From: an uncultured Chloroflexia bacterium
GTDB lineage: Bacteria; Chloroflexota; Limnocylindria; Limnocylindrales; CSP1-4
Direction of reading: 5' to 3'
DNA length: 64,000 bases
Assembly (NCBI GenBank): GCA_963782715.1
Contig: CAWAKU010000008.1
Location: 279,526-343,525 of the forward strand
The position numbers and the translations under genes are program-made. Under the pieces are notes generated by a model that was not told where the DNA came from, did not search any database, and saw nothing but the letters and a program-made list of their open reading frames with translations. Shown piece by piece: positions 5,620 to 49,854 of the stretch; the stretch's first letter is position 1; every line of letters begins with the position of its first letter.

Positions 5620-6876
5620 TCAATAGGTCGGATCCGTGCCACTGCGGGAGTACACGTGACTGGTGATGACGTCTACGACGTCCTTGTCGGAGCACTCGCC
5701 CGATCGGTCGACGCACTCGGTAAGGACGAGCGTGAGCCGGTCGCCGACGATGGTCCAGCGAAAGTTCGTGCGGACGCCCCCGCGATTGGTCATCGTCAGC
5801 TTGTCGCCGTCAACCGTCATGACGCCGCCGTCCCCCTCGGGAATGCCTTGGATCAGCCACAGCTCCCCGTCGAGGACGAAGCCCTGCCACCACTGGTCGC
5901 GGTCGAAGCCGAGCCGTAGGGCCACGTCTGCCCCCGACTTTCCGGCCTCCGCGGCGACATCCACCATCATCTTGCGAAGCGTCTCGGGACTGTCGTCCGT
6001 GACCGGGTAGTCCCAGGTTCCACGGAACGCCTCGAGGGCCGCGATGTCCTGGTCCGGGGTGAGCACCGGCGCGATCGCCGTAGGTCGGCTTGCGTCCCGC
6101 AGCTGCTCGATCCCATCGTCCGTCAACGCCGCCTGGTACACCGTTGCGGCGTCGATTGCCCCCGGCCAGAAGTCAGACGGGCCACCACGCGCCATGGAGC
6201 CACCGACCATCATCGCGCCGCGTGCCTGCCACGGCGCGTCGAAGGACGTCTCGGCCGCGCGCTTGCCATCGACGTAGAGACGGATCTGCCCAGCGGGCTG
6301 ATCGAACACGCCGGCGACATGGACCCAGGCGGCCGGATCGATTGCCGGACCGGTTGCTCGCGCACGGACCGTGTGCCCGGGGTCGTTTGTGTCGAGGTCC
6401 TTCATCGAGAAGGCCCAGTCTCCCTCGCCCAGACCGAGATAGAACGCGGAGGCTGTCTCGCCGACCTGACTGAGGACCGTCCCGAACGGCGACTTCTCGC
6501 CGACGGTCACCCAGGCCGCGACGGTGAAGCTGGCGGTGGTGTCGAGAGGGCCCGGCCCCGCCGTCGTTCCGTATCCCGTGACGCCGTCGAGCACGACCGC
6601 TCCGTGGTCGAACTCGTGCGTGCCGACGAACGTCAGTGGGTCGCCGGGTGACCCGTCGCCGTTGTTGTCAAGCTGCCATGCTGCCAGCGGCGTGGGCTCG
6701 ACGCTCGCTGCTGGTGTCGACATCGCCGAGACGGTCGGCGTGGGCTCGACGCTCGCGGAGGGCACCGGCGTCGTCGCCGATGCGGACGGCGTGGTGCCCG
6801 CGGTGCAGGCGGCGAGCAGGAGCGCGGCCGCGATTGCGGTCAGGTTCGAGGCGCGCGGGAACAAGGCACGTCGCAT
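5620..6876 (-). CDS. secreted lipoprotein with LamG/concanavalin-A-like lectin domain
   Basis: Start MRRALFPRASNLTAIAAALLLAACTAG with lipobox LAAC; RBS ggagac upstream. A Thr/Pro/Ser-rich linker is followed by a LamG-like region (FTVAAWV, IRLYVDG). Confidence 0.7.
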   Translation of the reverse strand: MRRALFPRASNLTAIAAALLLAACTAGTTPSASATTPVPSASVEPTPTVSAMSTPAASVEPTPLAAWQLDNNGDGSPGDPLTFVGTHEFDHGAVVLDGVTGYGTTAGPGPLDTTASFTVAAWVTVGEKSPFGTVLSQVGETASAFYLGLGEGDWAFSMKDLDTNDPGHTVRARATGPAIDPAAWVHVAGVFDQPAGQIRLYVDGKRAAETSFDAPWQARGAMMVGGSMARGGPSDFWPGAIDAATVYQAALTDDGIEQLRDASRPTAIAPVLTPDQDIAALEAFRGTWDYPVTDDSPETLRKMMVDVAAEAGKSGADVALRLGFDRDQWWQGFVLDGELWLIQGIPEGDGGVMTVDGDKLTMTNRGGVRTNFRWTIVGDRLTLVLTECVDRSGECSDKDVVDVITSHVYSRSGTDPTY

Positions 6877-6899: not shown

Positions 6900-8207
6900 T
6901 CAGGGAGCGAGCCGCTGCCAGCTCCAGTACGCCTGGTCGGTCGACACGTCGTACGACTTGGGCACGACATGCGCGAGGACGGTCGGCTCGGCGGTCGGGT
7001 CGCGGGCATGCAGCGCCAGAAGCTCGCAGTCGGTGGCGGAGATGCAGCGGAGCGCGGTGATCTCCGTGCCGTCCGGCGACCAGGCGAGGCTGTCGGCGGT
7101 GGCGCTGAGGGGTGCCAGGACCGTCTCGGTACGGGTGGCGAGGTCGAGCACGACGACCTGCCACTGCCGGCCGCCCGTCGATCGCCAGTACGCCAGCCGT
7201 CCGCCGTCCGGTGACCACGCCGGCTGGGCCTCGTCCTTCTCGGTGCCGGCGATCACCTTCTCGTCCACGCGATCGGTCGCGAGGAGGAGGATGTCGCGAT
7301 CGAGTCGGCCCGAGTCGCCGTAGTGCACGGCGATCCGCTTGCCGTCGGGCGACCAGCGCGGCAGCTGCAGGAAGCCATTGTCGGCGTTGCTCGGCCGGTC
7401 GCTGAGCCGGACGAGGCCGCTGCCATCGGGCGCCGAGACGTAGAGGAAGCTCTCCGGGCGTCGCGTCGGCTCGCCGAGAAAGGCGATGCGATCACCCGAG
7501 GGCGACCAGGCCGGGTATTCGACCGCGAACAGCGACGGGGGCAGAAGCTCGGTGCGGCCGCCGGTATCGGCGTCCACGATCCAGATCTTCGCCGCTGTGT
7601 CTGCTCCGCTCGCGTCGACGATCGAGACGGCGATCCGCCGCGAGTCGGGGTTCCAGGCCGGAGCTTCCTCGCCCATCACGATACCGGCAGCCGAGTCGGT
7701 GGTGACAAGCTCACGGGCGCCGGAGCCGTCCACGTTCGCGACCATGAGTGACGTCTTCGTGCCCTGCTCGCGCAGGAAGGCGACCCGTTGGCCGTCGAGC
7801 GAGACGCTGGGCCGCGTGTCGGTGCCGAGCCCGGTCGACAGCGGGCGCTGGTCGTTCCCGTCCGGCTCGAGCGCGAGGATGTGGCTGCCGTCGTCGTAGA
7901 TGACGAGGCCGTTCGCCGCGATCCCAAAGGGGGCCGGGATCCGGGGCCGCGAGCCAACGATGCCTTGGACGACCAGTGCCGCAATCAGCAGCACGAGGAG
8001 GACGACCCAGGCCAGGCGCACCGTCGCGGCGGCGTGCAACTCGGGCAGGTCGAGCAGGATCCAGTTGCGCGGGAACGTCCAGCCGGGCCGCTGGCGCTCG
8101 GTGCGCGCCCGAGCCCGCACCTCGGGCAGGTAGTCCGGCACACTCGCCGGCGCGGCGTCGGCCAGGAGATCGGCGAGACGGCGGTCGAAGGGATCTCGGG
8201 CGTTCAC
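6900..8207 (-). CDS. membrane anti-sigma factor with periplasmic TolB/PD40-like beta-propeller
   Basis: Its start overlaps the stop of the upstream ECF sigma gene by 4 nt. It has one TM helix (VRLAWVVLLVLLIAALVV). Repeated W/YSPDG motifs are present (PAWNPDSRRIA, PAWSPSGDRIA, PRWSPDGKRIA, PAWSPDGGRLA, LAWSPDGTEI). Confidence 0.75.
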   Translation of the reverse strand: MNARDPFDRRLADLLADAAPASVPDYLPEVRARARTERQRPGWTFPRNWILLDLPELHAAATVRLAWVVLLVLLIAALVVQGIVGSRPRIPAPFGIAANGLVIYDDGSHILALEPDGNDQRPLSTGLGTDTRPSVSLDGQRVAFLREQGTKTSLMVANVDGSGARELVTTDSAAGIVMGEEAPAWNPDSRRIAVSIVDASGADTAAKIWIVDADTGGRTELLPPSLFAVEYPAWSPSGDRIAFLGEPTRRPESFLYVSAPDGSGLVRLSDRPSNADNGFLQLPRWSPDGKRIAVHYGDSGRLDRDILLLATDRVDEKVIAGTEKDEAQPAWSPDGGRLAYWRSTGGRQWQVVVLDLATRTETVLAPLSATADSLAWSPDGTEITALRCISATDCELLALHARDPTAEPTVLAHVVPKSYDVSTDQAYWSWQRLAP

Positions 8208-8764
8208 GCCTTGCCCTCCACGAGCTGGGTCCCAGATTCCTGCCGTGCGACCCCGAACGCTTCACGCAGCTCGTGTCGCGCGCGGTGCAGGCGCGATTTC
8301 GCGGTCCCGAGCGGGACGCCCAGAGCATGCGCCGCCTCGGGCAGCGGCATGTCGAGGTAGTAGAAGAGGACGACGATCGTGCGCAGGTCGGGATCCAACC
8401 CGCGCAGCGCCCGCTCGAGGACGTCGCGATCCGCCGTTCGCGACTGCGCGTCGGGCACGTCCAGGTCATGAATGTCGGAAATCTCGACCTCGATCGGGCG
8501 CGACCGGCGGCGACGCAGCTCGTCATAGCAGGCGTGCACAAGGAGCCGATGGAGCCACGCGTCGAACCGGTCGGGATCGCGGAGGGACCGGAGATCACGC
8601 CAGGCCTTGGCGAACGCCTCTTGGACAGCGTCCTTGGCCTGCTCGGGGTCTCGGAGGATCAGCCTGGCAGCGCCGTCGAGCCGGCCGATCGCGGCGAGCG
8701 CGAGCGCGTCGAAGGCGTCCAGATCGCCTCGACGTGCCCGCTCCACGAGTTCCCGCTGCGCCAC
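8204..8764 (-). CDS. ECF (group IV) sigma-70 family RNA polymerase sigma factor
   Basis: 186 aa with sigma-2 (DAVQEAFAKAWR) and sigma-4 (GTAKSRLHRARHELR) regions. Confidence 0.85.
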   Translation of the reverse strand: MAQRELVERARRGDLDAFDALALAAIGRLDGAARLILRDPEQAKDAVQEAFAKAWRDLRSLRDPDRFDAWLHRLLVHACYDELRRRRSRPIEVEISDIHDLDVPDAQSRTADRDVLERALRGLDPDLRTIVVLFYYLDMPLPEAAHALGVPLGTAKSRLHRARHELREAFGVARQESGTQLVEGKA

Positions 8765-8952
8765 GCTCTACCTCGTCTATCACGCGTCCTCAAGTCGCGC
8801 TTACAAGGTACGGCGGATGGAAGAGGGCATCGGTTCGCGGATGACGGCAACCGTTGTCGGTGACCAGGCTATCCAGCCCGACGACGTCGACGCCGCCACG
8901 TGAGACTTGACAGGCCCCGTGGCTCGCCAACACTCAAAGGTTGGGCAGGAAC

Positions 8953-9028
8953 TGGCGCCCCCGGACGGACTCGAACCCCTGGCAGCAACGCGGCGTCTTG
9001 GACTGGTACCTCGAGGTGGGCTGACGCC
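8953..9028 (-). repeat. pseudo-tRNA / tRNA-Arg 3'-end direct repeat, copy B
   Basis: The first 23 nt match the tRNA-Arg(CCT) 3' end at 13791-13813 exactly (gcgcccccggacggactcgaacc). The remainder is tRNA-length but cannot form an acceptor or T stem. Homologous to copy C. Confidence 0.5.
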
Positions 9029-9050
9029 CTGCCCTGCCCTGCCCTGCTGT
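9028..9050. repeat. pentanucleotide microsatellite (CCCTG)x4
   Basis: gccctgccctgccctgccctgc, immediately after pseudo-tRNA copy B. Confidence 0.5.
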
Positions 9051-9191: not shown

Positions 9192-11540
9192 TCAGGGCAA
9201 CGGGAACCCGGCCTCGGCGAGGGCCTGTGGGCTGACCAGCGGAGACTTCTCGCCGAACGTGCGGCGGAGCAGAAAGTACTCGGGCAGCGGACGGTCGTCC
9301 GTGACGAGCGGACCTGAGCCCGCGAACGACGCAACCTGCGCACCCTTCAGCCAGGACAGTCTCGGAATGAGAGCCGCCCAGCCATCCGCGGTCTTCGCAG
9401 GAGAGTCGTACGCCCCGGAGATGTCCTCGAGAATGCCCGGCCGCGCGAGCACCTCGCGCACGCTCCGGTCTTCCAACACCATCGGCTGGTCGGAACCGAG
9501 CAGGAAGAACCCGTAGTTGCCCGGGCTGGCGAGCACCAGAACTTCGGGGAAGACGTCGGAGAAGGTCCGGACGTGCGCCTGAAGCTCATCGATCGTCATG
9601 CCGTACGAGACCCACTGCATCATGATCCCGCCGGGGGTCAGGCGCTCGTGGCCGGCCTGGTAGTACTCGAGCGACGAGATGACTGTGATACCCGACGCCT
9701 CGACCGGCGGCGGCGGGTCGGTCACGATGATGTCGTACTTCTTGTCGGTTAGCTCCATGTGGTTCCGGCCGTCGGCGACGATGACGTGGCCGTTCGGGTT
9801 CGCGCGGATCGCGGCGGCGTCCGGGAAGAAGTAGCCGAACATCGACGGCACCGAGGGCACCAACTCCACCGCATCCGTCGTCAGGCCCGCGATGACGCTC
9901 GAGCGGAAGCCCGAGCCCATCCCGAAACAGACGATCAGTGCGCTTTTCGATTCCGGTCGGGCGATGAGTGGCAGGGTCACCATCAGCCTCGCGTCGACGG
10001 TGAGGGCTGTCATCGATGCACCAGTGACCCACAGCTGCTTGAACCCGTTGACGCTGCCGGCCTGGACGGATGCGATCTCGTCCTCTCGACTCGCGAACAG
10101 CTCCCCATCCCGATTCGCGATGTTCGCAACGCTCGGGTCGACGAGGATCCCGCTGGTCGCCAAGGCCACGACGAGAACCACCGCGGTCACCGCTCCCACG
10201 CCATACGTGGTCACTCGCCCGACGGCAGATCTGATCGGCGCCGCGTATGCGAGGCAGAGACCCAGAGCGATGTTGATGAGGGCGATGACACCGATCGCGT
10301 CGGGCGCTCCGATGGCCGGGATGACGAAGAACGGCACCACGAACGTGCCGACGATGGCGCCGAGTGTGTTCGCGGCAAGCAGCAGGCCGGCGCTCGTCGC
10401 GACCTTGCCGCTGCGGCCCGCCACGAGGGCAGACGAAGCCGGGAAGCTGAGGCCCATCACGATGGTCGCGGGCAGCACGACGAGTAGGGCCTGCGAGAAC
10501 AGGACGCCGATGATGCCGTCGATCCGACCTTGCTGGACGGTGTATTGGAAGGGTTTCGAGAGGACGAAAACGACTCCGGCGAGGGCCAGGACGCCGATCA
10601 CGATGTTGGTCCGTGCCAACAGAGCGACCGGCTGCCGGATCCAGCGCCGGAGCAGGGTGAAGAGCACCGCACCGATCGCGATCCCGGTGAGGAATACCAC
10701 GAGGATCAGCGTGAAGACGTATGCGTAGTTGCCGCTCCCCGACGCGAGGAGCCGCGTCCAGAGGACCTGGTACGCGAGCGAGGTCAGGCCGGAGACGAAC
10801 GCCACGACCAGCGCGATCCGGGGTCGCGGGTCGGTATCTGCGGTCCCATCAGGGACCGTCGACGCCTCGGGGGCGGTGGCCGTCGAGACAGCCTGGGCGA
10901 CTGCATCGGACTCGGACGCTCGACGCCGTCGGTCGAGGACGACCGCGGTCAGGCCCGCGAGGGCAGAGCAGCCCGCGGCAACCACCAATGTCTCCGACAG
11001 GCCGAGGACCTCGATCAGCACCAGGCCGGCCGCCGCCGCGCCGATGATCGCCCCGATCGTGTTCGCGGCGTACAGGCGGCCGAAGGCCGAGCTCAGGTGG
11101 GTCGCGTCCCGGGAGAGATAGCGGGTGAGCGTCGGGAGGGTCGCGCCCATGAGGATCGTCGCCGGTGCGAGCGCCAGGAGCGCGAGCCCGAACCGAACGA
11201 GGCCGAGGACCTGCGGCGACGCCTCGAGAGATGTGAACGCGCCCTGGTAGACCGAACCGATGAGCCGGAACGTCACCGGCGTCAGGAGGACGACGACCAC
11301 GAGGATCGCCTCCAGGACGCCGTACAGCAGCAGCGGTCGCGGGACCCTGTCCGCGAGCCGTCCCCCACCCCACGAGCCGATCGCCATGCCGCCGAAGAAC
11401 CCGGTCAGGATCACCGAGACGGCCTGCGTGGTGTTGCCGAAGACCAGGACGAGTTGCCGCGACCAGACGACCTCGTACATCAGGCCGGCAGCGCCGGAGA
11501 GGATGAAGATGGCCAGGATCGGCCAGCGCCGAGACGTCAC
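9192..11540 (-). CDS. fused MFS-type membrane domain / spermidine synthase (aminopropyltransferase)-like protein
   Basis: About 12 TM helices in the N-terminal 500 aa. The C-terminal domain has PABS-like motifs (VADGRNHMELTDKKYDIIVTDPPPP, GGIMMQWV). The start is uncertain: GTG at 11540 or ATG at 11840. Confidence 0.7.
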   Translation of the reverse strand: MTSRRWPILAIFILSGAAGLMYEVVWSRQLVLVFGNTTQAVSVILTGFFGGMAIGSWGGGRLADRVPRPLLLYGVLEAILVVVVLLTPVTFRLIGSVYQGAFTSLEASPQVLGLVRFGLALLALAPATILMGATLPTLTRYLSRDATHLSSAFGRLYAANTIGAIIGAAAAGLVLIEVLGLSETLVVAAGCSALAGLTAVVLDRRRRASESDAVAQAVSTATAPEASTVPDGTADTDPRPRIALVVAFVSGLTSLAYQVLWTRLLASGSGNYAYVFTLILVVFLTGIAIGAVLFTLLRRWIRQPVALLARTNIVIGVLALAGVVFVLSKPFQYTVQQGRIDGIIGVLFSQALLVVLPATIVMGLSFPASSALVAGRSGKVATSAGLLLAANTLGAIVGTFVVPFFVIPAIGAPDAIGVIALINIALGLCLAYAAPIRSAVGRVTTYGVGAVTAVVLVVALATSGILVDPSVANIANRDGELFASREDEIASVQAGSVNGFKQLWVTGASMTALTVDARLMVTLPLIARPESKSALIVCFGMGSGFRSSVIAGLTTDAVELVPSVPSMFGYFFPDAAAIRANPNGHVIVADGRNHMELTDKKYDIIVTDPPPPVEASGITVISSLEYYQAGHERLTPGGIMMQWVSYGMTIDELQAHVRTFSDVFPEVLVLASPGNYGFFLLGSDQPMVLEDRSVREVLARPGILEDISGAYDSPAKTADGWAALIPRLSWLKGAQVASFAGSGPLVTDDRPLPEYFLLRRTFGEKSPLVSPQALAEAGFPLP

Positions 11541-11890
11541 GGGAGGCGGCCGGTCGAGCGCGATAGCGGCAAGGTCACTGTCCGGCCGAATCCACGACAG
11601 CAGTCTGCTCGATGGCGAGCATGCGCGCACGGCGATGTCAAGGTCACGCTGGCTGGAATCGGCATGTGAAGAAGATCCGCTCCGTGTCGTTCGGACATTG
11701 GTCGGCGTCGCCCCACCTCGCAAGTCCGGTCGGGCTCGGATGCGCCCATCCAGTCTGCGGCGTCGGACTGGTTCGTTCGGTGCGCGGGGCCTCCACGAAC
11801 ACAGGGCGCGAACGAAATCGTCGACGTTACCCCTTGACAAGGTAGCCGCCGGGTCTCAGGCCACACACTCCGACGTTGAACAGGCGCCTC

Positions 11891-12801: not shown

Positions 12802-13647
12802 CTATTGCACGACGATGTCCTTGATCCCCAGGGTCGCGCCAGGGTCGAAATGCGTGACGTCGAAGACGAGGACGGCCTCCACGCGCTCCGAGCCCGCGTG
12901 CCAGCCGTGTTCGTAGATGTTCCGGATCGGCTTCCCGCCCTCATCGAGTGAGCGGATCTCGAGTCCGACGCCGCCATCGACGATGGAGACGCCCGTCGGC
13001 CAGGACTCGACGAGGGCGAAGTCCGCAGCCGTCAGGATGCCGTTGGGCAGACGCGCCTCGCCCACCGAGATCTCGTAGTGGCCGACGTGATCGATGGGGA
13101 TGTCCAGGCGACTGACGCGGAGCGGCGTCGCGTGCGCGAGCGCGTCGGGGGCGATGGACGGTCGGCCCCCCTGCAATTGGGCCTCGGTGCCGTCGTAATA
13201 CCCACCGTGCATCACCGATGACGCTTCGAGATGCGGATCGTCCGCGCACTGGACGCCGCTGACTCCCGGACAGATCTGGTCCAGCCTGTGGACCGATCCG
13301 TCCCGGAGGGTCACGCTGACGTCCACGGGTGGGCCAATCCCGTAGGCACCGAGCTGCGGGTTGGGCTGCGGTGTGGGCTGCGGGATCACGTCGAGGCTGG
13401 CGATCTGCTCCCGGGTCGTGCCGAGCTGGGCGGCCACCCAGTCCGTCATCGTCTGGCATCGGACGGCGTTGTAGACCTGGCTACACGGGATCCCAGCCGC
13501 CGCAGACGTGGTGGTTGCGGATGACGACGTGCTGGTCTGGGGCGCCGAGGACGCGGTCGGTGCCACCGGGGATCCGAGCGTCCGGCTGCAGCCAACCGCT
13601 AGCACCGCGACCGCCAGAGCCAATGTGAGGATGACAGTGCGTCTCAT
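12802..13647 (-). CDS. hypothetical lipoprotein (Cys-rich, Thr/Ser-rich linker)
   Basis: Start MRRTVILTLALAVAVLAVGCS with lipobox AVGC. Several conserved-looking Cys (IPCSQVYNAVRCQ, ICPGVSGVQC). It lies immediately downstream of tRNA-Arg. Confidence 0.6.
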   Translation of the reverse strand: MRRTVILTLALAVAVLAVGCSRTLGSPVAPTASSAPQTSTSSSATTTSAAAGIPCSQVYNAVRCQTMTDWVAAQLGTTREQIASLDVIPQPTPQPNPQLGAYGIGPPVDVSVTLRDGSVHRLDQICPGVSGVQCADDPHLEASSVMHGGYYDGTEAQLQGGRPSIAPDALAHATPLRVSRLDIPIDHVGHYEISVGEARLPNGILTAADFALVESWPTGVSIVDGGVGLEIRSLDEGGKPIRNIYEHGWHAGSERVEAVLVFDVTHFDPGATLGIKDIVVQ

Positions 13648-13789
13648 GACGCCATGATGGCCGGTCAGCTTTCCTCGCGCCCGAAATGACGGCACGTGTA
13701 GTCGAGCGTCGAGAGACAAGCGCTTCTGGTTACGGGACGGGCAGTGGAGGCGCGACCGATCTTCGCGGACTCCGCAACGGCATTTGCAA

Positions 13790-13866
13790 AGCGCCCCCGG
13801 ACGGACTCGAACCGCCGACGCAGGCCTTAGGACGGCCTCGCTCTGTCCACTGAGCTACGGGGGCGC
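13790..13866 (-). tRNA. tRNA-Arg (anticodon CCT)
   Basis: The reverse complement folds as a cloverleaf: acceptor GCGCCCC/GGGGCGC, anticodon stem AGGCC/GGCCT, loop GTCCTAA (anticodon CCT), T-loop TTCGAGT. CCA is not encoded. Confidence 0.85.
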
Positions 13867-14138
13867 GGACTCCATCGTACCGCGGCGCGATCCGCGACCT
13901 TTCCGTATCGGCATTCCTGCCTTGCGTTCGGCTGGTGGGCGTTCGACGCGATCGAGGGGCCGGAACGTGGATCTCGAGGGGTCCTCGCAGAGTCGTGCGA
14001 GCACGACTGCTCGTCAGGTCGCGCTCGAGCCAGCCTGAGACTTTGACTACCGTCCACGTCACGGACGCAAGGCACGAAACCAGGGCGGAGGGTCACTCAC
14101 CGGCCGTTTCGCGGGCCTCCCCTACAATCCCTCGCGAG

Positions 14139-14417
14139 ATGCACGACGCTCCCCTCCCCGACCTGTTCCTGTACGGCCGCGCGGGCTGCCACCTATGCGA
14201 GGACGCACACGAGGCACTGATCGCGCTATTCGAGGAGCGGGCGCGGTCGGGCCTGCCCAACCCGAACCTCGTCGAGCGTGACATCGAGACTGACCCGGAT
14301 TGGGAGCGGGCGTATTTCCCGTCGATCCCGGTCGTGGTCCTCGGCGACCGACGCCTCGAATTCGCGACGAGCCCGGCAAAGCTCCGTCGGCTCCTCGCCG
14401 ACGTCCTGGACGCCTGA
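14139..14417 (+). CDS. glutaredoxin-like / thioredoxin-fold protein (CxxC)
   Basis: 92 aa with active-site-like YGRAGCHLCEDA. TACAAT sits 10 nt upstream of the ATG, suggesting a possibly leaderless transcript. Confidence 0.65.
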   Translation: MHDAPLPDLFLYGRAGCHLCEDAHEALIALFEERARSGLPNPNLVERDIETDPDWERAYFPSIPVVVLGDRRLEFATSPAKLRRLLADVLDA

Positions 14418-14429
14418 GCCGACCGACCG

Positions 14430-15248
14430 ATGGACGGCACGAACCTCACGATCCTGGTCGCCCTCGCCGCCGGAGTCATCAGCTTCCTCTCGCCGTGCGT
14501 CCTGCCCCTGGTGCCCGCGTACCTTGGGCAGCTGACGGCCATCGCCGTCGCCGGGTCCGCGCCGGGCGCCAAGCCGTCGCGTTGGCTGGCGGTGCGGCAT
14601 GCGCTCGCCTACGTCGCCGGATTCGGGGCCGTGTTCACGGTCCTCGGCATCACTGCCACCTTCGCCGCGGGTCCTCTCGTTGACTACCTGCCGGCACTCC
14701 GAACCATCGGCGGCCTCGTGCTCATCGTCCTGGGGCTCGACCTGGCAGGGCTGCTCCACATCCCGGTCCTCAGCCGCAACTGGCGGCCGCTGGACGCAGG
14801 GGCGGCAAGCTCGCTGGCGACCGCCACCGGGACGACGTCGTTCGGCTCCGGGGCGGCCGCTCCCGGCGTCGGTGACCGGATCGGTGGGCACGTCGTGAGC
14901 TCGCGCGGCGGCTGGTTCGCGTCATTCGGGCTGGGGGCCATCTTCGCCATCGGCTGGAGCCCGTGCATCGGCATCATCCTCGGCGGCATCCTGACGCTTG
15001 CAGCGACGTCCGACACCGTCCTCCAGGGGGCCGTCCTGCTTATTGCCTACACGATCGGTCTGGGCCTCCCGTTCCTGATCCTGGCGGCCATCTTCGACCG
15101 CGCCCCTCGTGTCATGGCGCCGCTGGTCCGTCACGGCAAGACGGTCTCGCTCATCGGTGGCCTGCTGGTCGCGTTCATCGGCGTCGCGATGGTCTTCGAC
15201 TGGCTCGTCCTGCTGCCGCGCTACTTCAACTTCAACACCGCCATCTGA
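14430..15248 (+). CDS. ccdA: cytochrome c-type biogenesis protein CcdA (DsbD-family thiol-disulfide transporter)
   Basis: Multi-TM protein with two conserved Cys in membrane segments (FLSPCVLPLVP and GWSPCIGIILG). Confidence 0.85.
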   Translation: MDGTNLTILVALAAGVISFLSPCVLPLVPAYLGQLTAIAVAGSAPGAKPSRWLAVRHALAYVAGFGAVFTVLGITATFAAGPLVDYLPALRTIGGLVLIVLGLDLAGLLHIPVLSRNWRPLDAGAASSLATATGTTSFGSGAAAPGVGDRIGGHVVSSRGGWFASFGLGAIFAIGWSPCIGIILGGILTLAATSDTVLQGAVLLIAYTIGLGLPFLILAAIFDRAPRVMAPLVRHGKTVSLIGGLLVAFIGVAMVFDWLVLLPRYFNFNTAI

Positions 15249-15922
15249 TGACGGACCGGCCGCAGTTCGAACACAAGCGCGAACGCCACGGGGTCATCGG
15301 TCCGTTCAGCGGACGCCAGCTGGTCTTCGCGTTCGCGATCGTCATCGCTCTCGCGGTCATCCTGGTCGGGGTGACGACCCCGCTCGGCACGACGGCCGAT
15401 GGGCCTGGCGCGGTCGACCCACGAGCGACCGCCTACATCCTGTCGTCACCGCCGCCGGTCGGCCTGAAGGTCGGCGCCAGCGCCCCCGAGTTCAGCGTCG
15501 CGAACGACGACGGCTCGACATACCAGCTGACCGACCTCGACGGCAACCCCATCCGACTCGCGGATCTCAAGGGCAAGGCCGTCTGGGTCAACTTCTGGAC
15601 GACGTGGTGCCCGCCATGCCAGTCCGAGGTGCCGATCCTGCGCGACCTCGCGACTCGCTACAAGGATCGCGGCCTCGAGGTCGTCGCGGTCAGCGTCCAG
15701 GAGACGTCGCCGGCCGACGTCAAGGCGTATGCGACGAAGTACCAGCTGCCGTACACGATCGGTTTCGATGGTTCCGGCAAGATCTTCCACGCCTACAAGG
15801 CCTACGGGCTGCCGACCCAGGTCTTCATCGACCCGAATGGCGTCATCCGTTCGATCGTCGGGGCACCGCTCGACATGGCCGGAGCGACGGCCCAGATCGA
15901 GGCGATCCTTCCCCAGCAGTGA
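15248..15922 (+). CDS. resA: thiol-disulfide oxidoreductase, TlpA/ResA family (membrane-anchored thioredoxin)
   Basis: ATGA overlap with the ccdA stop. N-terminal TM anchor, then WVNFWTTWCPPCQSE thioredoxin motif. Confidence 0.85.
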   Translation: MTDRPQFEHKRERHGVIGPFSGRQLVFAFAIVIALAVILVGVTTPLGTTADGPGAVDPRATAYILSSPPPVGLKVGASAPEFSVANDDGSTYQLTDLDGNPIRLADLKGKAVWVNFWTTWCPPCQSEVPILRDLATRYKDRGLEVVAVSVQETSPADVKAYATKYQLPYTIGFDGSGKIFHAYKAYGLPTQVFIDPNGVIRSIVGAPLDMAGATAQIEAILPQQ

Positions 15923-15925
15923 CCG

Positions 15926-17185
15926 TTACGGCACCGGCTGGAGGCCCAGCCAGGTGGTGAACGTGCCGAACGGCAGGATCTTGACGGGCACGCCACCCGC
16001 CGCGTCCACGATCCAGGGCGAGACATCGACGGTGTCGCCCTGCGCAGTCGATCCGCCCGAGGCTTTCGCGAGGACGGTACGCGTGAAGGTGATCCGGCTC
16101 CCATCGGGGAGATAACGTGGATGGCTCGTGGCATCGGTTCCCGCCTCGATCAGAGCCTCCTCGCCGGTCCCGTCCGCATGGACGCGGGTCAGGCCCGTGC
16201 CGTCGGTGACGACGATCCACTGTCCGTCGGGCGACCAGTCGAGGTCGGTCAGCGTGCCCCCCGGTCGGCTCAGGACCACCGTCTCGGCCCGGGACGCGAG
16301 ATCGAGGACGACGACCTCTGACGATGCCACTGGGCCGCCACGGACCGTCTGATGCGTCCGCACGAAGGCGATCCGATCGGTCGTCGGCGACCAGCGCGGC
16401 GAGCGCTCCTCGATGAGCCCGCAGGTGCTCGACATCAGGGTCGTCGTCGCCCCCGGCGACGCCCCGACCAGGACACCGCCGATGTCCGCGACCCGCAGAC
16501 CGCACGTCGTCGGGATGGCCACGGTCTCGCCATCGACGACGACATCCTCGGTCGGCCCATCGGCGAAGAAGAAGACGACCCGACTGCCATCGCGCGACAC
16601 CGCCTGGAATTCCTGGTCGACGCATGGAGCGAGGCACGGCAGGAGCCGCGTACTACGACCACTCGCGATGTCGTGCGACCAGATGTCCCGGCCAGCGGTA
16701 GATGTGGCCGACGCGAGGAACGTGAACGAGCGCCCGGAGACGTCCCATTCCGGTTGCTCGTGGCGGGGGTCCGTGACATCGGTCGCGACGATGTGGTCGT
16801 CCGACCCATCGAGCCCGACGAGATGGATCTCGACGACCGAGTCGTCGATGTTCGAGATCTGGTACGACAGGAGGCCCGGAGTGCCGGCGAGGGGGTACGG
16901 CACGACGCTCGGGGTCGGCGACGGACTCGGAGTCGGCAGGACGACCACGGATGGACGCGAGCCGGCCACGCCGATCAGGCCGATGGCGGCGGTCGCCACG
17001 ATCGCCCCGACGAGGACGAGCCGTCCGGTCGGGCGAGACCATCGACGGCGCGCCCGCGGCCGGCCCCGGACTGCCTCGCGGGCAACGATCGCGGTCGGGC
17101 GCGGGTCGATCACGCCGCGCGTGTAGCGCTCAAGGTCATCGGCGAGGCGTCGCTCGAGGGCGGTCATCGTGCTGTCGCTATCCAT
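15926..17185 (-). CDS. membrane anti-sigma factor with TolB/PD40-like beta-propeller (second module)
   Basis: Start MDSDSTMTALERRL lies 2 nt after the stop of sigma gene 17178..17816. TM helix LVLVGAIVATAAIGLIGV. Cys motifs (LPCLAPC, TCGL x2) are shared with lipoprotein 17862..19013. Confidence 0.7.
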   Translation of the reverse strand: MDSDSTMTALERRLADDLERYTRGVIDPRPTAIVAREAVRGRPRARRRWSRPTGRLVLVGAIVATAAIGLIGVAGSRPSVVVLPTPSPSPTPSVVPYPLAGTPGLLSYQISNIDDSVVEIHLVGLDGSDDHIVATDVTDPRHEQPEWDVSGRSFTFLASATSTAGRDIWSHDIASGRSTRLLPCLAPCVDQEFQAVSRDGSRVVFFFADGPTEDVVVDGETVAIPTTCGLRVADIGGVLVGASPGATTTLMSSTCGLIEERSPRWSPTTDRIAFVRTHQTVRGGPVASSEVVVLDLASRAETVVLSRPGGTLTDLDWSPDGQWIVVTDGTGLTRVHADGTGEEALIEAGTDATSHPRYLPDGSRITFTRTVLAKASGGSTAQGDTVDVSPWIVDAAGGVPVKILPFGTFTTWLGLQPVP

Positions 17186-17816
17186 CGCCGAGGTCCTCGC
17201 GAAGTCGTGCCATGAGTCGAGACAGGCGAGCCCGGACCGAGGATGCATTCCGGCCGGTCGTCTCGGCGATCTCGTCGGATCCCAGACCGCCGAGGTAGCG
17301 CATGACGATGAGGGCTCGATCATCCGGGTGCAGCTTCAGAAGCGCCGCGATGAGGTCCGACCGGTCACCGCTCGGCTGGGGCACCGCGGCCGCATCGGCG
17401 TCGCGCTCCTCGTCGAGCGGTGCGACCTCGCGAACCCACCGCCGGCGACGCGAGCGGGCGGCCTGGCGAGCCTCGTTGCTGACGACGGCGATGAGCCATG
17501 GGCGAAGCTTGGTCGGCTCACGCAGCTTGTCGAGCCCTTGCCAGACCTTGACCCAGGCGGCCTGGGTCGCATCGCGGGCGAGATCGGCATCGCCACACAC
17601 GCCGTACGCGATCCGGACCAGCTCCGCATGATGCGCCGCCACGATGCCGGCGAACGCATCCTCGTCGCCCGAGCGGGCGCGTTCCACGAGGTCGGCACCG
17701 GACGACGCCCTCACGCTCAGGTTCATCTCCACGTATCGATAGATGCCGATCACGCCCGATCTGCTGCATGGTGACGAATCTTCGTCGGTCTGCAGCGCCC
17801 CACCGACAACCGGCAT
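17178..17816 (-). CDS. ECF sigma-70 family sigma factor (second module)
   Basis: sigma-2 (ATQAAWVKVWQ) and sigma-4 (SSVRARLSRLMARL) regions. Strong RBS aaggagg before the first ATG. Confidence 0.85.
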   Translation of the reverse strand: MPVVGGALQTDEDSSPCSRSGVIGIYRYVEMNLSVRASSGADLVERARSGDEDAFAGIVAAHHAELVRIAYGVCGDADLARDATQAAWVKVWQGLDKLREPTKLRPWLIAVVSNEARQAARSRRRRWVREVAPLDEERDADAAAVPQPSGDRSDLIAALLKLHPDDRALIVMRYLGGLGSDEIAETTGRNASSVRARLSRLMARLREDLGDG

Positions 17817-17861: not shown

Positions 17862-19013
17862 ATGCGACCCTTGGCGAACCCGATGCGCGGTGTCGCGCTA
17901 GCCGGCGCTCTGCTGCTGGTCGCCGGCTGTGGCGGACAAGGCGCCAGCGGCCCGGCCCCGATTTCGAACCCGACGCCGTCGACGGCCATCGCGGCGCCCG
18001 TCTCGAGTGCCACACCCGTCCCGAACCGGCCATCGGTCGCCCCGCCGACCCCGACCGCCTCGCCGTCGCTGCCGCTCGCCGGGCTCGACGGCTGGATCGC
18101 GTACAGCATCGGCGACAGTCGTGCGGCCAAGGTCCGCCTCATTCGACCGGACGGCAGCGACAACCACGCGATCGCCGAGGACGCAGGCCCGCGTTCGATC
18201 CACCCGGAGTGGCTGCCCGACGGGCGAAGCCTCCTGTTCGAGCAAGTGGTCGGCCGCGATGACGTCAAGTCGATCTGGCGATGGGACATGGCGAAGGGGT
18301 CGTCCACCGAGATCGTGCCGTGTGCGGACCCGTGCGTCGCCCGCCAGGCGCCGGCGCCGTCGGCCGACGGGTCGAGGATCGCGTACGAGACCTACGACGG
18401 GCCGATCGATGATGTCACCGTGGGCACGGCGGTCGCCCAGATCCCGGCGCATTGCGGGCTCCAGGCGATGACCCTCGCGACGCACGAGACCAGCACCATC
18501 GCGACCGGCACATGCGGCCTCGTCGAATGGCATGGACCGCGCTGGTCGCCGACGGGCGACCTCGCCTACTTCCGGACCCATCAGGCCACGCGTGGCGGTC
18601 CGGTCGAGCTCGCCGAGCTCGTCGTCCATGACATGGCGTCGGGCAAGGACCGGGTGATCAACGAATGGCCGGCGTGGGACGAGGCGAACCAGCTCGAATG
18701 GTCACCCGACGGCACCTGGATCGTGTTCTCGACCCAGGGTCGGATCGATCGGATCCATCCGGATGGGAGCGGTGGTCACACCCTGGTCGAGGCCGGCGAC
18801 AAGGCGTTGAGTGCCAACCCGTACCACCCGCGATTCCTCCCGGATGGGAGCTCTCTTACCTTCAACTGGAGCATCGCGCCCCGCGGCGTCATCACCTCCG
18901 TCCGGTTCTTCGCGATGCCTGCCGCAGGTGGGGCCCCGACCGAGGTCCTGCCCGAGGGTGAGAACGGCACCGACGAGCACTACAACTGGGGCTCGCTCCA
19001 GCCCACACCGTGA
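17862..19013 (+). CDS. TolB/PD40-like beta-propeller lipoprotein, paralogue of the adjacent anti-sigma sensor domain
   Basis: Lipobox LLLVAGCGG, RBS ggagga. Long stretches align to the periplasmic domain of the 15926..17185 protein, for example FRTHQATRGGPVELAELVVHDMASG vs VRTHQTVRGGPVASSEVVVLDLASR. Confidence 0.75.
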   Translation: MRPLANPMRGVALAGALLLVAGCGGQGASGPAPISNPTPSTAIAAPVSSATPVPNRPSVAPPTPTASPSLPLAGLDGWIAYSIGDSRAAKVRLIRPDGSDNHAIAEDAGPRSIHPEWLPDGRSLLFEQVVGRDDVKSIWRWDMAKGSSTEIVPCADPCVARQAPAPSADGSRIAYETYDGPIDDVTVGTAVAQIPAHCGLQAMTLATHETSTIATGTCGLVEWHGPRWSPTGDLAYFRTHQATRGGPVELAELVVHDMASGKDRVINEWPAWDEANQLEWSPDGTWIVFSTQGRIDRIHPDGSGGHTLVEAGDKALSANPYHPRFLPDGSSLTFNWSIAPRGVITSVRFFAMPAAGGAPTEVLPEGENGTDEHYNWGSLQPTP

Positions 19014-45642: not shown

Positions 45643-46317
45643 TCAGCGATCCGTCGGGTCACGCCTCGGCAGGTCTCGCTCCATCGCGCCCGTCATCCGG
45701 ATGAGCGTCGCAGCGAGTGCGACCAGCGCGATGCCCGCGAGCCAGCCACCCAGGACGTCGCTCGGGTAGTGGACACCGAGGGCGATCCTCGACAGCCCGA
45801 TGAGCACCGGCAGCGTGATGCCGATGACGACGGCAAGCCGTCGCACCGAGAGCGGGAGCTCACTCCGCCAGACCACGAGGGCGATCAGGCCATAGGTCGC
45901 CGCGCTATTCAGGGAATGGCCCGATGGGAAGCTGTACCCGGAGGCGACCACGAGTGGATCGACACCGGGTCTCGGTCGCGCGATGTAGTCCTTCACAAGA
46001 TCCGTGAAGAGGGTCGCGGCCAGGAGCACGACCCCGACGATCAGCGCGAGGCGCAGCCGGCGGCTCGCGAGGATCGCGAGCACGAACACGATGGCGATCG
46101 GGATGAGGATCAGCCCGCCGAGCGCGGTGATCGCCTCCCAGACACCGACCGGGATCGGCAGAGCCTGGACGGCCGCCACGAGCGGCTCGTCGAAGCCGAG
46201 GCCTCGGTTCTTTGCGACGAGTGTGGCGAGGCCAAGGAAACCGAGCGCCGACGCGAGGCCCACCCATGGCCACGGATCACGGCCGGCGGAGCGGCCCGCG
46301 GGCGAGGTTCGGGCCAT
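45643..46317 (-). CDS. PAP2-family phosphatase (undecaprenyl-diphosphatase-like)
   Basis: KDYIARPRP...SFPSGHS...HYPSDV PAP2 motifs with 5-6 TM helices. Confidence 0.8.
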   Translation of the reverse strand: MARTSPAGRSAGRDPWPWVGLASALGFLGLATLVAKNRGLGFDEPLVAAVQALPIPVGVWEAITALGGLILIPIAIVFVLAILASRRLRLALIVGVVLLAATLFTDLVKDYIARPRPGVDPLVVASGYSFPSGHSLNSAATYGLIALVVWRSELPLSVRRLAVVIGITLPVLIGLSRIALGVHYPSDVLGGWLAGIALVALAATLIRMTGAMERDLPRRDPTDR

Positions 46318-46431: not shown

Positions 46432-46524
46432 TCGCCCCATCGTACTAGGCGCGATCACCTGGCGATCCTTCGCGAGACTCTGATCTTCGACCAAACCACG
46501 CTCATCACCGGAGCGTCGGTCATC

Positions 46525-47130
46525 ATGGGGAGAAGCGGAGGTTCGGTGGCCCAGGGAACGGCGACCGCAGTCGTGATGACCGGCTCGAGTGAGGCGGTCC
46601 TCGTTGCCCGCGCGCAGCGGGGCGACCGTGTGGCATTCGAGGCTCTCGTTGAGCCACGCATCGACCGCCTCCTCCGTCTCGCCGACTCGATCGTATCCAA
46701 CGATGCCGACGCGTCAGACGCGGTCCAGGAGACGTGCCTGCGAGCCTGGCGCCAGATCACGCGACTTCGGGAAGCGGACAGGTTCGAGGCCTGGCTTTGG
46801 CAGATCGCCATCAACGCCTGCCGGAGCGCCCTCAGGACGCGACGGCGGGTCAACGTTCGCGAGATCGCCATGGAAACCATGCCCGTCGGGTTCGATCTCC
46901 CCGCGCCAGGCCGGGGGATCGGCGACGACCTGTCCGCCATCGACGTCGTCCAGCGCGCTTTCCGACGGTTGGACGCAGACAAGCGCGCGATCCTGGTCCT
47001 GCATCACGTGGAGGAGCGCTCGATCGCCGAGATCGCGGAGCTCCTGGGCATCCCCGGTGGGACGGCCAAGTGGCGGCTGTTCGCAGCACGCCAGGCACTT
47101 GAGCGAGCGCTCGAGGTGGAACGACGATGA
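46525..47130 (+). CDS. ECF sigma-70 family sigma factor (third module)
   Basis: sigma-2 (DAVQETCLRAWRQ) and sigma-4 (GTAKWRLFAARQALERAL) regions. ATGA overlap with the downstream gene. Confidence 0.85.
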   Translation: MGRSGGSVAQGTATAVVMTGSSEAVLVARAQRGDRVAFEALVEPRIDRLLRLADSIVSNDADASDAVQETCLRAWRQITRLREADRFEAWLWQIAINACRSALRTRRRVNVREIAMETMPVGFDLPAPGRGIGDDLSAIDVVQRAFRRLDADKRAILVLHHVEERSIAEIAELLGIPGGTAKWRLFAARQALERALEVERR

Positions 47131-48467
47131 ACGACTCCTTGCCGCCCATCCTGTCCGACGACCTGCTCCGGGTGGCCCTCACGCGGCAGCCACCGGCTCC
47201 GGTCTCCGATGCCCTCTGGGACGATCTGCATCGCGCGCTGGCGAGCACGACGCAGCAGCGACGACGGGTCATCGTCTGGCCGTGGACTCCCAGCCTGCCG
47301 GGTCTTCCGCCCACGACCGCTCGTCGACGCCTCCGTGCGGTGGCGGTCCTGGCGACCCTCGCGCTCCTCATCGCGCTCTCTCTCGGGGCCATCGCCATCG
47401 TGGGGAGCATCCACCGGGTGCCCCCGCCCTTCGGGCTCGCCGGGCCCGGCCTGATCGCGTTCGATTCGGGCGGCGACATCTTCGTCTCGAATGCCGATGG
47501 CACCGACCGCCGACAGCTGACATCGGGGCCGGCGATCGACCTCATGCCGGTGTTCTCGCCGGACGGGACGAAGTTGACCTATGTGTCCCTGATCGATCCC
47601 ACGGACCCAGCGAACTACGCCATACCGATCGAGCAACTCGTCGTCATCGACCCTGACGGGACGCATCGCGTCGTCATTGCCACGAAGCACGCCACCGGTT
47701 CGGCATACGACGACCCATACCACTACAGTGGCAGTGCCTCCTGGTCCCCCGATTCCACGCGATTGGTCTACGCCGGTCCGCCCGACGGAAAGAACGATCG
47801 CATCTTCGTGGCCCAGGCAGATGGCTCCGCCTCACGCACTGTCGGTGATGAGACTGTCAGGGGCCAAGATCCGATCTGGTCGCCCGATGGCAAGCGCATC
47901 GCGTTCCACGGCGGCTCCAATGACAGCGAGCGCGGGATCTACGTGATGAACGCCGACGGCTCGGATGTGCGCCGTCTCGTCGGGTTGAAAGCGACGTATT
48001 CACCGATCGTGTGGTCACCGAACGGAAGCGCGATCGCCTTTGTCGAGCGGCCGGGGCCGACAGGGCAGGAGATCTGGATCGTCGGCGTGGAGGATGGCGT
48101 CCCTCGTCGTGTCTCGAATACGACCGACATCAACGACGCTCCGGCGTGGTCACCCGACGGGAGCTGGCTGGCCTATGACACGACCCCGAAGGGATACCTT
48201 CCGAACTTGCAATTCGTCGTCGTCCGGCCGGATGGCTCGGGCACGACCGTGTTTGCACCGCCCGTGGCGAATGGTCCCACGTGGTCGCCGGATGGACATC
48301 ACCTCATGGGCACCGCCTTCGAGGACCCGGCCACGCCGTTCCAGCATTCGATCGCGATCGTCGACATCGCTGATGGGACAGTGGTCGTCCTGCCAAGGAA
48401 CGGGACGAGCGGATCGGCCAATGACGACGTCAAGGGCATCCCTGGCTGGCAGCGACGGGCCGACTGA
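47127..48467 (+). CDS. membrane anti-sigma factor with TolB/PD40-like beta-propeller (third module)
   Basis: TM helix LRAVAVLATLALLIALSLGAIAIVG. Repeated xSPDG motifs (VFSPDGTKL, ASWSPDSTRL, PIWSPDGKRIAF, IVWSPNGSAIAF, PAWSPDGSWLAY, PTWSPDGHHL). Confidence 0.75.
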   Translation: MNDSLPPILSDDLLRVALTRQPPAPVSDALWDDLHRALASTTQQRRRVIVWPWTPSLPGLPPTTARRRLRAVAVLATLALLIALSLGAIAIVGSIHRVPPPFGLAGPGLIAFDSGGDIFVSNADGTDRRQLTSGPAIDLMPVFSPDGTKLTYVSLIDPTDPANYAIPIEQLVVIDPDGTHRVVIATKHATGSAYDDPYHYSGSASWSPDSTRLVYAGPPDGKNDRIFVAQADGSASRTVGDETVRGQDPIWSPDGKRIAFHGGSNDSERGIYVMNADGSDVRRLVGLKATYSPIVWSPNGSAIAFVERPGPTGQEIWIVGVEDGVPRRVSNTTDINDAPAWSPDGSWLAYDTTPKGYLPNLQFVVVRPDGSGTTVFAPPVANGPTWSPDGHHLMGTAFEDPATPFQHSIAIVDIADGTVVVLPRNGTSGSANDDVKGIPGWQRRAD

Positions 48468-48568: not shown

Positions 48569-49060
48569 GTGAGCACACTCGACCTCGCCATCCTGCTCGT
48601 CATCGGGTTGATCGCCGTCATCCTCTTCCTCAGTGCAGATCGCTTGGGGCTGTCGCGCCGACAGGTCGCGTTCCTGCTGATGATCACCAGCGCCGGCCTG
48701 GTCGGCGGCCTGGCCGTCGTCGATGGACTCCCCGGGCAGCCGGTCGCGCTCCTGACCGACGCAGAGGATGGCATGCACGGCGCGTGCTTCCTGAGCTTCA
48801 TCGAGGGCGAGCTTGTGACCGATCCCGTCTCGGGAACCGCGATCATCGGCCGAAATGGCGGGAGCACCGAAGAGCGGCTCCCGGTGATGTGGCCCCTCGG
48901 CTGGACTGGCCGCCGGACGTTGTTCTCAGACGTCGAGGTCCTCGACCCGACCGGGAGAGTCGTCGTTCGGACCGGGACGCGCGTCCACCTCATGGGCGGT
49001 GGCTACGGGCCATCCGGACGGCCATGGCTGACCTGCGATGCGGCCTACCCGCTCCCCTAG
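48569..49060 (+). CDS. hypothetical membrane-anchored protein
   Basis: GTG start. Two N-terminal TM helices, then a soluble domain. No family recognised. Confidence 0.45.
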   Translation: MSTLDLAILLVIGLIAVILFLSADRLGLSRRQVAFLLMITSAGLVGGLAVVDGLPGQPVALLTDAEDGMHGACFLSFIEGELVTDPVSGTAIIGRNGGSTEERLPVMWPLGWTGRRTLFSDVEVLDPTGRVVVRTGTRVHLMGGGYGPSGRPWLTCDAAYPLP

Positions 49061-49091: not shown

Positions 49092-49655
49092 CTACTGCGA
49101 CAGCTTCCAGAATTGTCTGTTGTTCGTGATGTCGCACGCTTCGAGGAAGACTGCGGCGCCCGCGGCCGCCCTGGGGAACGAGAGGCAGCCCTTCGCGAAC
49201 TCGATCTGCCCAGTCAAGGTGAAGGTCGACTTTTGCGCCTTGGTGTTGTCGCAGAAGGTGACCGGGACCGCGAGGCCGTCGCCGCGCTTCCGGCTGCTGA
49301 CGTCAACGCACATCCCCTGGGTCTCGATCAGCTGGTTCAGGCCGGTCGCCAGCCACGAGAATGTCCATCGCTGAGCGGAGATGGCGCTGCATGGCTCCAG
49401 GGTGACCGATCGCAGATCGGCCGCGCCGCCATCGACCTCTGCACAGAAGCTCGTGTCCAAAGCACTGTGGAGCTGGAAGCCGACCCCGTGCGCGGTGGTC
49501 GTCGGGAGCACGACGGGAGCGGCGACCGCCGGCGTCACGGTGGCTGTCGCTCCGACGGTCACCGGGGCGACCGTCGCCGCCAGGAGTGTGGCCGCCCCAA
49601 CGAGGGCGAGGAAGGCGGCCCGCGTGCCGCGCCGGGGTGGACGGATCGAGCGCAT
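49092..49655 (-). CDS. secreted ricin-B-type (beta-trefoil) lectin domain protein
   Basis: Signal peptide MRSIRPPRRGTRAAFLALVGAATLLAA. QxW-type repeats (QRW, QFW) spaced by Cys pairs, as in R-type lectins. Confidence 0.7.
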   Translation of the reverse strand: MRSIRPPRRGTRAAFLALVGAATLLAATVAPVTVGATATVTPAVAAPVVLPTTTAHGVGFQLHSALDTSFCAEVDGGAADLRSVTLEPCSAISAQRWTFSWLATGLNQLIETQGMCVDVSSRKRGDGLAVPVTFCDNTKAQKSTFTLTGQIEFAKGCLSFPRAAAGAAVFLEACDITNNRQFWKLSQ

Positions 49656-49854
49656 CCGACATCGCTCCCTTCGCGGCGGCCGTGGCGGACGGGAGATCAG
49701 CGTCGGTAGGCCCGGCTGGCCGCGTCCGACCAGTGTGGGGGCACGGCGGGCCGATGCAAGACCCCAGGACCATCGGATCGCGGTGCCGCCGGACACAGTG
49801 GTGCCTCGACGCTCGGAGCGTCCCAGAACGGACGAGCGTAGGGACCACTCGAGA

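Follow-up and report, generated by a model that had tools for sequence, protein, structure and literature searches.

Within a 64,000-nt stretch of DNA from an uncultured Chloroflexia bacterium (contig CAWAKU010000008.1, positions 279,526 to 343,525; this whole stretch is referred to here as the window), we found three modules in which a gene for an extracytoplasmic function (ECF) sigma factor is followed by a gene for a single-pass membrane protein, its partner, that carries a PD40/TolB-like beta-propeller. We consider it fairly likely that each module is an autoregulated pair of an ECF sigma factor and a putative membrane anti-sigma factor, and, judging from comparative sequence data, the partners themselves probably act as anti-sigma factors. 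What makes such a role plausible, as the first-pass annotation of this DNA had proposed, is the synteny of sigma and partner genes in related genomes, the scarcity of that synteny in a control set, the co-variation of the sigma factors with the N-terminal module of the partners, and promoter motifs ahead of sigma 1 and sigma 3.

The window has a G+C content of 68-72%. Its proteins are most similar to homologs in metagenome-assembled genomes (MAGs) that bear the names Candidatus Limnocylindrales, "uncultured Chloroflexia" or Chloroflexota, which assigns the DNA to class Limnocylindria of the phylum Chloroflexota. When all six-frame open reading frames (ORFs) were searched with phmmer, three ECF sigma factors and four PD40 proteins made up the full set in the window, and the sigma and PD40 genes adjoined one another; this adjacency is therefore not a matter of chance. 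The ORF coordinates in the first-pass annotation were borne out, as was its description of an ECF sigma gene overlapping the gene of a single-pass membrane protein, which is true of all three modules, with overlaps of 4 or 8 nt that couple the translation of the two genes. In module 1, on the reverse strand, sigma 1 (186 aa) lies at 8204..8764 and partner 1 (435 aa) at 6900..8207, and the sigma stop and the GTG start of the partner share 4 nt (GTGA). Module 2, on the same strand, consists of sigma 2 (212 aa, 17178..17816) and partner 2 (419 aa, 15926..17185), in which a short N-terminus and a single transmembrane segment precede a divergent propeller. Partner 2 most likely begins at ATG 17185, giving an 8-nt overlap with sigma 2, and not at 17323, as read from the database gene call P0121 and the ortholog in locus L061, both of which agree with the later start, and from the conservation of start and N-terminus in orthologs P0122-P0124. 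In module 3, on the forward strand, sigma 3 (46546..47130, in an ORF that opens at 46525) overlaps partner 3 (446 aa, 47127..48467) by ATGA; its start is probably GTG 46546, since a promoter motif described below ends only 7 nt before ATG 46525 and a conserved GGAGG precedes the GTG.

All three sigma ORFs contain Sigma70_r2 and Sigma70_r4_2 in Pfam (E 6.9e-14 and 1.7e-13 for sigma 1) and score 77-88 bits (87.5 for sigma 1) against the NCBIfam ECF superfamily model TIGR02937, for which the cut-off is 42.9. With regions 2 and 4 only and lengths of 186-212 aa, they belong to the ECF (group 4) sigma-70 factors. The three fell under the cut-offs of the specific NCBIfam sigma models (SigE-fam_strep, SigM, SigW and others); the best of these for sigma 1 was TIGR02983, at 117.7 bits versus a cut-off of 141.55. 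The closest solved relatives of sigma 1 are ECF sigmas of the AlgU, SigH, SigE and SigW type. Its orthologs in related MAGs are 91-92% identical to it, and its relatives are uniform, the best 120 matches being 58-92% identical and mostly ~185 aa long.

Only one segment of each partner is strongly hydrophobic (Kyte-Doolittle maximum over 19 residues, 2.6-2.8), and a basic, Trp-containing stretch lies ahead of the membrane (RQRPGWTFPRNW, RARRRWS and QQRRRVIVWPW). A search for PD40 returned 75.6, 38.4 and 100.7 bits for partners 1, 2 and 3 (E 2.3e-21, 1.1e-9 and 3e-29), all above the Pfam gathering score of 20.9, and the W-S-P-D-G-like repeats that had been pointed out matched the exact pattern 4, 1 and 6 times, respectively. 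An HxxxCxxC motif is absent from all three partners, as had been stated, and there is no Cys in any true N-terminus. The propeller had been called periplasmic, for which "extracytoplasmic" is the proper word in a Chloroflexota cell.

The AlphaFold2 model of partner 1 (mean predicted local distance difference test [pLDDT] score 89.6, from a 79-sequence alignment) divides the protein into a cytoplasmic N-terminal module of residues 1-58 (8034-8207, reverse strand), in which helices at 6-18 and 27-36 are followed by a short turn (42-48); a membrane-spanning helix of residues 59-84 (7956-8033, reverse); and a propeller of ~28 strands spanning residues 98-433 (6909-7916, reverse). The first-pass annotation had found the N-terminus unremarkable. 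In module 1 it is in fact the most diagnostic part of the protein, a conserved family motif (FDRxL...PDYL...RQRPxW...RWLP) that reads roughly (D)xFDRxLxxWLxxxAxxxVPDYLDxVLxRTxxTRQRPAWxxPERWLP, and the family profile matches partner 1 with 83 bits. The subfamily of partner 1 is very large, with 5,320 significant matches among 8,000 scored candidates, and a search of 1.84 billion proteins with a 60-residue N-terminal profile recovered at least 2,110 representatives at 50% identity, 1,177 of them at E <= 1e-10. Full-length proteins with this module were all ~400-460 aa among the matches listed. Out of ten mid-length proteins scanned, seven contained PD40, three had no Pfam match of any kind, and no other sensor domain appeared, so that the module is tied to the PD40 propeller architecture. 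The N-terminal sequences of partners 2 and 3 are of their own kinds, each conserved among its own orthologs; that of partner 3 (QRRR...WPW) is conserved in L063 and L064. An apparent mimicry of sigma region 4 by the N-terminus in MAFFT alignments was rejected (hhalign probability 0.4%), and P0112, P0254 and P0286, which looked like natural sigma-partner fusions, proved to be frameshift artefacts with a garbled sigma part.

We scanned one genome per species (185,579 species) with the N-terminal motif as the sole query and obtained 58 loci. Fifty-six of these had upstream DNA, and in 55 of the 56 an ECF sigma ORF ended between -4 and +62 nt from the partner start, with a 4-nt overlap in 36 of the 55. 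Co-occurrence across related genomes, which had been proposed as a check, is therefore close to universal, and the arrangement is kept in the orthologous loci L059, L060 and L061. As a control we collected 80 metagenome loci through propeller similarity to partner 3. An upstream sigma gene was present in only 5 of the 53 evaluable control loci, and the N-terminal motif in none of them. The comparison of 5/53 with 55/56 indicates that it is the N-terminal module, and not the propeller, with which linkage to a sigma gene is associated. In three metagenome loci (L076, L122 and L138), unrelated PD40 membrane proteins of other lineages with different short N-termini follow an ECF sigma gene, and propeller-type ECF partners may have arisen more than once. 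An operational definition for putative anti-sigma factors asks for a conserved protein encoded at position +1 that has a transmembrane helix or similarity to known anti-sigma factors (PMC7826278); here the partner gene is at +1 with an overlap in all three modules, it holds that position in the 55 of 56 related loci, and its product has one transmembrane segment. The same source cautions that not every putative +1 anti-sigma factor will act as one and that such assignments are unverified (PMC7826278).

We found conserved ECF-type promoter-like motifs ahead of sigma 1 and sigma 3, where the first-pass annotation had suggested that such promoters be sought. The motif upstream of sigma 1, GCGAACC-N16-CGCCGTACC (8807..8838, reverse strand), is kept as a block in L059 and L060, whose partners are 78% and 50% identical to partner 1, while the flanking intergenic DNA diverges. 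Upstream of sigma 3, the motif CAAACC-N15-GCGTCGG (46492..46519, forward strand) keeps its elements and spacing in L062 (partner 62% identical) and L063 (43%). Both sites reduce to AAC-N17-CG(C/T)C, a layout typical of ECF promoters. A family-wide motif, GGAAC(G/C)-N~17-CG(C/A)CATAC, was present in 39 of the 56 sigma upstream regions examined among the loci with the N-terminal motif, ~65-75 nt before the sigma start. The layout of the sigma 1 site is that of this family-wide motif (in short form, GGAAC-N~17-CGCCATAC). With a position weight matrix of this family motif, which is dominated by one orthologous subtype, the sigma 1 site ranked fourth in the window with a low score. The position of the motifs upstream of sigma 1 and sigma 3 suggests autoregulation. 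Motifs of this type had also been expected ahead of neighbouring lipoprotein genes, where none was found; the LamG-type gene next to partner 1 would lie within the operon of that partner.

We compared evolutionary distances in a mirror-tree analysis of 35 intact sigma/partner pairs. The mean p-distance rose from 0.36 for the sigma factors to 0.47 in the N-terminal module and 0.70 in the propeller; conserved sigma factors together with fast-diverging propellers are what would be expected if the paralogues had diversified in sensing. For class I anti-sigma domains and their ECF sigma factors, a Pearson correlation coefficient (PCC) of 0.82 has been reported (PMC7406223). In our set, distances within the N-terminus correlated with those of sigma at a PCC of 0.76 and those within the propeller at 0.52, and the partial correlations were 0.68 and 0.26 (permutation p 0.001), a contrast that saturation of the propeller distances may inflate.

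This saturation is one of several points that weigh against an anti-sigma role. The partner 1 N-terminal module had no match in Pfam up to E 10, zf-HC2 and RskA included, and its profile matched none of the PDB sequences, solved anti-sigma domains included. Class I domains measure 101 +/- 33 aa (PMC7406223), and a module of ~58 residues with two helices and no Cys or Hx3Cx2C falls outside that class (ASDI/ZAS). Partners 2 and 3 gave no significant match to the partner 1 family profile with their N-termini, so that a single mechanism shared by the three modules is an extrapolation. P0308, a frameshift artefact that fuses sigma and partner and keeps sigma region 4 in frame, gave a fragment model in which region 4 had a pLDDT above 90 and the N-terminal module one of 57-78, with a predicted template modelling score (pTM) of 0.48; sigma region 2 is missing from this fragment and the alignment of the N-terminal part had only six rows, making it a weak test of docking. 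For sigma 2 no promoter motif could be called from a single ortholog and a divergent 45-nt intergenic region, where the comparison revealed little conservation beyond the start region. Finally, the degenerate AAC-N-CGYC pattern occurred 8 times in the window versus 7.5 expected; it was not enriched, and we consequently called no further regulon member there.

Some of these points bear on the proposal that the sigma factor has the membrane propeller protein, transcribed along with it, as a target or effector engaged in envelope maintenance or binding, and is itself controlled elsewhere, for example through transcription, a soluble anti-sigma factor or phosphorylation. An N-terminal module unlike known anti-sigma domains and a P0308 model without confident docking are what this proposal would lead one to expect, and the published warning on +1 assignments speaks for it too. 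We nevertheless judge it unlikely. The 58 cytoplasmic residues are better conserved than the propeller (0.47 vs 0.70) and co-vary with sigma, which would be unexpected of a mere membrane anchor; the overlap of sigma and partner genes is almost invariant and leaves no space for a regulator gene between them; and linkage to sigma goes with the N-terminal module rather than with the propeller. Synteny and co-variation would also be explained if the partner were a positive signal transducer that activates or stabilizes the sigma factor, for instance by bringing it to the membrane to be modified, instead of sequestering it, and non-canonical activation of ECF sigma factors through protein-protein interaction is known (PMC8999054). 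However, no kinase, response regulator or other activator is conserved in the neighbourhoods that we examined, and the sigma factors are without a regulatory C-terminal extension (186 aa); we regard a positive role as quite improbable.

The propeller of partner 1 is modelled with a pLDDT above 90 as six- or seven-bladed, and in a Foldseek search of the PDB its top match was TolB (E 5e-14), followed by S9 peptidase propellers (to E 1e-11). The PD40/TolB-like propeller that had been predicted is thus supported by Pfam in all three partners and by AlphaFold2 and Foldseek in partner 1. Against TIGR02800, the TolB model, the partners scored 93.5, 32.4 and 124.5 bits, far under the cut-off of 343.15, and matched only profile positions ~173-418, the propeller part. 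Pfam returned partial DPPIV_N (propeller) matches and no Peptidase_S9; the proteins end with the last propeller strand and a conserved C-terminal WQRLAP, so that they are not peptidases. It is hardly credible that they are TolB orthologs or S9-type peptidases that merely sit beside sigma genes: no structures match better than those of TolB and S9 peptidases, and homologs are named in the sources "Tol biopolymer transport system component" or "dipeptidyl aminopeptidase/acylaminoacyl peptidase", yet the likeness to TolB and to S9 prolyl-oligopeptidase and dipeptidyl peptidase IV is confined to the C-terminal fold and its PD40 repeats, with a transmembrane anchor where TolB has its N-terminal domain, no signal peptide, no peptidase domain and no tol-pal genes nearby. 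Since TolB and S9 propellers bind peptides or proteins, the analogy suggests what type of ligand the partners might have.

The overall design is a familiar one. In RpoE-RseA, SigW-RsiW, SigV-RsiV, and the SigD-RsdA and SigK-RskA pairs of Mycobacterium tuberculosis, the sigma gene is likewise followed by a co-transcribed gene for a single-pass, N-in membrane protein, whose cytoplasmic N-terminus is presumed to bind sigma in our modules as well and whose C-terminus is an extracytoplasmic sensor. They also resemble our modules in the autoregulatory AAC...CGT-type promoter and in the sigma factor, sigma 1 being homologous to AlgU, SigH, SigE and SigW. What differs is the short, unannotated cytoplasmic module and the PD40 propeller sensor: the partner 1 module has ~58 residues and two helices, with neither zf-HC2 nor RskA. 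In CnrY, a class II anti-sigma factor, the first helix makes contact with sigma region 4 and the second with sigma region 2 (PMC7406223). By the size, shape and helix count of its model, the partner 1 module resembles this short two-helix segment, though the two are not alike in sequence; CnrY lacks a large sensor domain and signals by way of CnrX, whereas partner 1 carries a fused sensor. The nearest described case is ECF57 of Planctomycetes, in which WD40-like repeats lie in a C-terminal extension of the sigma factor (PMC8999054). There, too, propeller-type repeats are coupled to an ECF sigma factor as its presumed input, but they are fused to sigma and no separate anti-sigma factor exists, while here the PD40 propeller is on a separate membrane protein. 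We found no characterized anti-sigma factor with a PD40, TolB-like or other propeller domain in the searchable literature; a similar group may have been described earlier in silico.

In the mechanism that we propose for the putative anti-sigma partners, the cytoplasmic N-terminal module would bind the cognate sigma factor and hold it at the membrane, and the propeller would face outward, an orientation supported by the exported lipoprotein paralogue of partner 2 and by conserved Cys pairs. The ligand of the propeller would come from the envelope and, to judge from TolB and the peptidases, would probably be a peptide or protein; alternatively, the propeller would bind the co-encoded LamG or PD40 lipoprotein. 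Ligand binding would lead to regulated proteolysis or a conformational change that frees the sigma factor, which would then drive transcription of its own operon, through the AAC-N17-CGYC promoter, and of a further regulon. ECF systems can include accessory lipoproteins or periplasmic proteins, such as RseB with RseA and CseA in the Streptomyces sigE-cseABC operon. Secreted protein or lipoprotein genes are similarly found in or beside the operons here (LamG after partner 1, PD40 at module 2 and in L060); the protein families differ from those of RseB and CseA, and a modulatory role for them is speculative.

The three modules had been described as paralogous, a description that holds only in part. 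Modules 1 and 3 are clearly paralogous: their sigma factors are 43% identical, and their partners are 30% identical over 317 residues (E 4e-27). Module 2 is divergent and represents a separate, rare subfamily with its own lipoprotein paralogue. Sigma 2 is 33% identical to sigma 1. Partner 2 was not recovered among the window ORFs by phmmer with partner 1 or partner 3 as the query, it has only repeat-level BLAST similarity to partner 1 (E 8e-9), and just three orthologs of it were found, at 60-62% identity.

The lineage-specific expansion that the first-pass annotation had suggested was apparent on a larger scale. Of the 58 loci with the N-terminal motif, 56 come from Limnocylindrales, "Chloroflexia" or Chloroflexota MAGs; the N-terminal module is found in at least the 2,110 clusters given above; and additional sigma-like ORF matches were present in 16 of the 58 8-kb loci. 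At least 7 of 14 inspected loci contain a second partner-like gene within 4 kb upstream, and in L060 the partner is followed by a further PD40 protein gene, with another sigma-PD40 module at a distance of 5 kb. The clustering seen in the window is typical of the lineage. Soil Limnocylindria have been reported to encode more sigma factors than their freshwater relatives (PMC13212565), and the expansion fits this excess. Many genes are broken by frameshifts in the Microflora Danica (MFD) nanopore MAGs, in which partners run on in other frames; the affected loci are L001, L002, L004, L007, L009, L010, L012-L014, L019, L025, L039, L043 and L044. We discounted apparently short partners in nanopore MAGs as frameshift artefacts, and we rejected longer sigma homologs (P0479, P0471 and others) as fusions, the starts being mis-called.

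Module 1 is followed, 23 nt downstream of partner 1, by a gene for a LamG-type (Laminin_G_3) lipoprotein (5620..6876, reverse strand; Pfam E 3.2e-24, lipobox LLLAAC). The order sigma-partner-LamG is kept in L059 with a gap of 24 nt, and the lipoprotein gene is probably the third gene of the operon. Scans for sigma-70 promoters and intrinsic terminators were uninformative, with no promoter-like site and only two terminator-like matches, both on the forward strand, opposite to module 1. The long intergenic stretch upstream of sigma 1 contains a (CAGGG)4 microsatellite (9026-9046) and, at a distance of 190 nt from sigma 1, a copy of the tRNA-Arg(CCT) 3' end (8953-8977, reverse). The first 23 nt of this copy (GGTTCGAGTCCGTCCGGGGGCGC) match the end of the intact tRNA gene, which lies 4.8 kb away (13791-13864, reverse), at every position. 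The interval between the two contains genes for an MFS/spermidine-synthase fusion (9192-11840) and for a lipoprotein (12802-13719). We saw no integrase at this site, and L059 has tRNA-Arg and only a small acetyltransferase gene there; the region looks like a remnant island or variable site at the tRNA.

Divergent from sigma 2 lies the gene for the PD40 lipoprotein (383 aa, 17862..19013, forward strand; lipobox LLVAGC), which is 40% identical to the propeller of partner 2 over 354 residues (E 1e-72); the two propellers have four conserved Cys in common. At its N-terminus, sigma 2 is extended by ~35 residues ahead of region 2 (17726-17816), an extension that is kept in the L061 ortholog, also of 212 aa. 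AAGGAGG is found 5 nt upstream of the sigma 2 ATG at 17816, and this start region is conserved in L061. The module adjoins a thiol-disulfide oxidoreductase cluster (13935-15922) made up of a glutaredoxin-like gene, DsbD_TM/CcdA and a TlpA-like redoxin. L061 (215-3294) has the same divergent sigma/lipoprotein layout in the same redoxin/DsbD/glutaredoxin-like context; the closely related genome L059 (1757-2454) is without module 2 and the PD40 lipoprotein and has a YCII gene between its redoxin and Lactamase_B genes, so that the module is subject to presence/absence polymorphism. From this gene context, a functional link of module 2 with its neighbours through disulfide formation or redox sensing is a possible candidate.

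A gene for a 163-aa membrane protein with no Pfam match (48569-49060) lies 101 nt after partner 3 and may belong to the module 3 operon. Beyond it, a gene for a secreted Ricin-B-lectin domain protein (49092-49796, reverse strand) adjoins tRNA-Pro(GGG) (49895-49971, reverse). On the other side of the module, a gene for a PAP2-family membrane phosphatase (45643-46317, reverse) is divergent from sigma 3. Envelope lipid phosphatases are frequent neighbours of ECF genes; no promoter motif shared by the PAP2 gene and sigma 3 was found.

Pairs of ECF sigma and anti-sigma factors are among the most abundant signalling devices of bacteria, and for most groups the input signal is unknown. The modules in the window belong to a large uncharacterized family, with at least 2,110 partner clusters at 50% identity and thousands of sigma relatives, that is centred on an uncultured class of Chloroflexota from soil and whose presumed sigma-binding module is absent from Pfam. 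We put forward only tentatively that the ~58-residue module is an undescribed structural class of ECF anti-sigma domain which, joined to rapidly diversifying PD40 propellers, would provide soil Limnocylindria with many parallel pairs, each tuned to its own peptide or protein ligand from the envelope or the environment, with the adjacent lipoproteins as co-receptors. If the anti-sigma assignment is true, the partners would add a new sensor type, and perhaps a class of anti-sigma domain, to the ECF catalogue, and closely related sets of sigma factor, anti-sigma factor and promoter would become available to be tried for orthogonality in synthetic circuits. The family would also help to explain the high sigma factor counts of soil Limnocylindria (PMC13212565).

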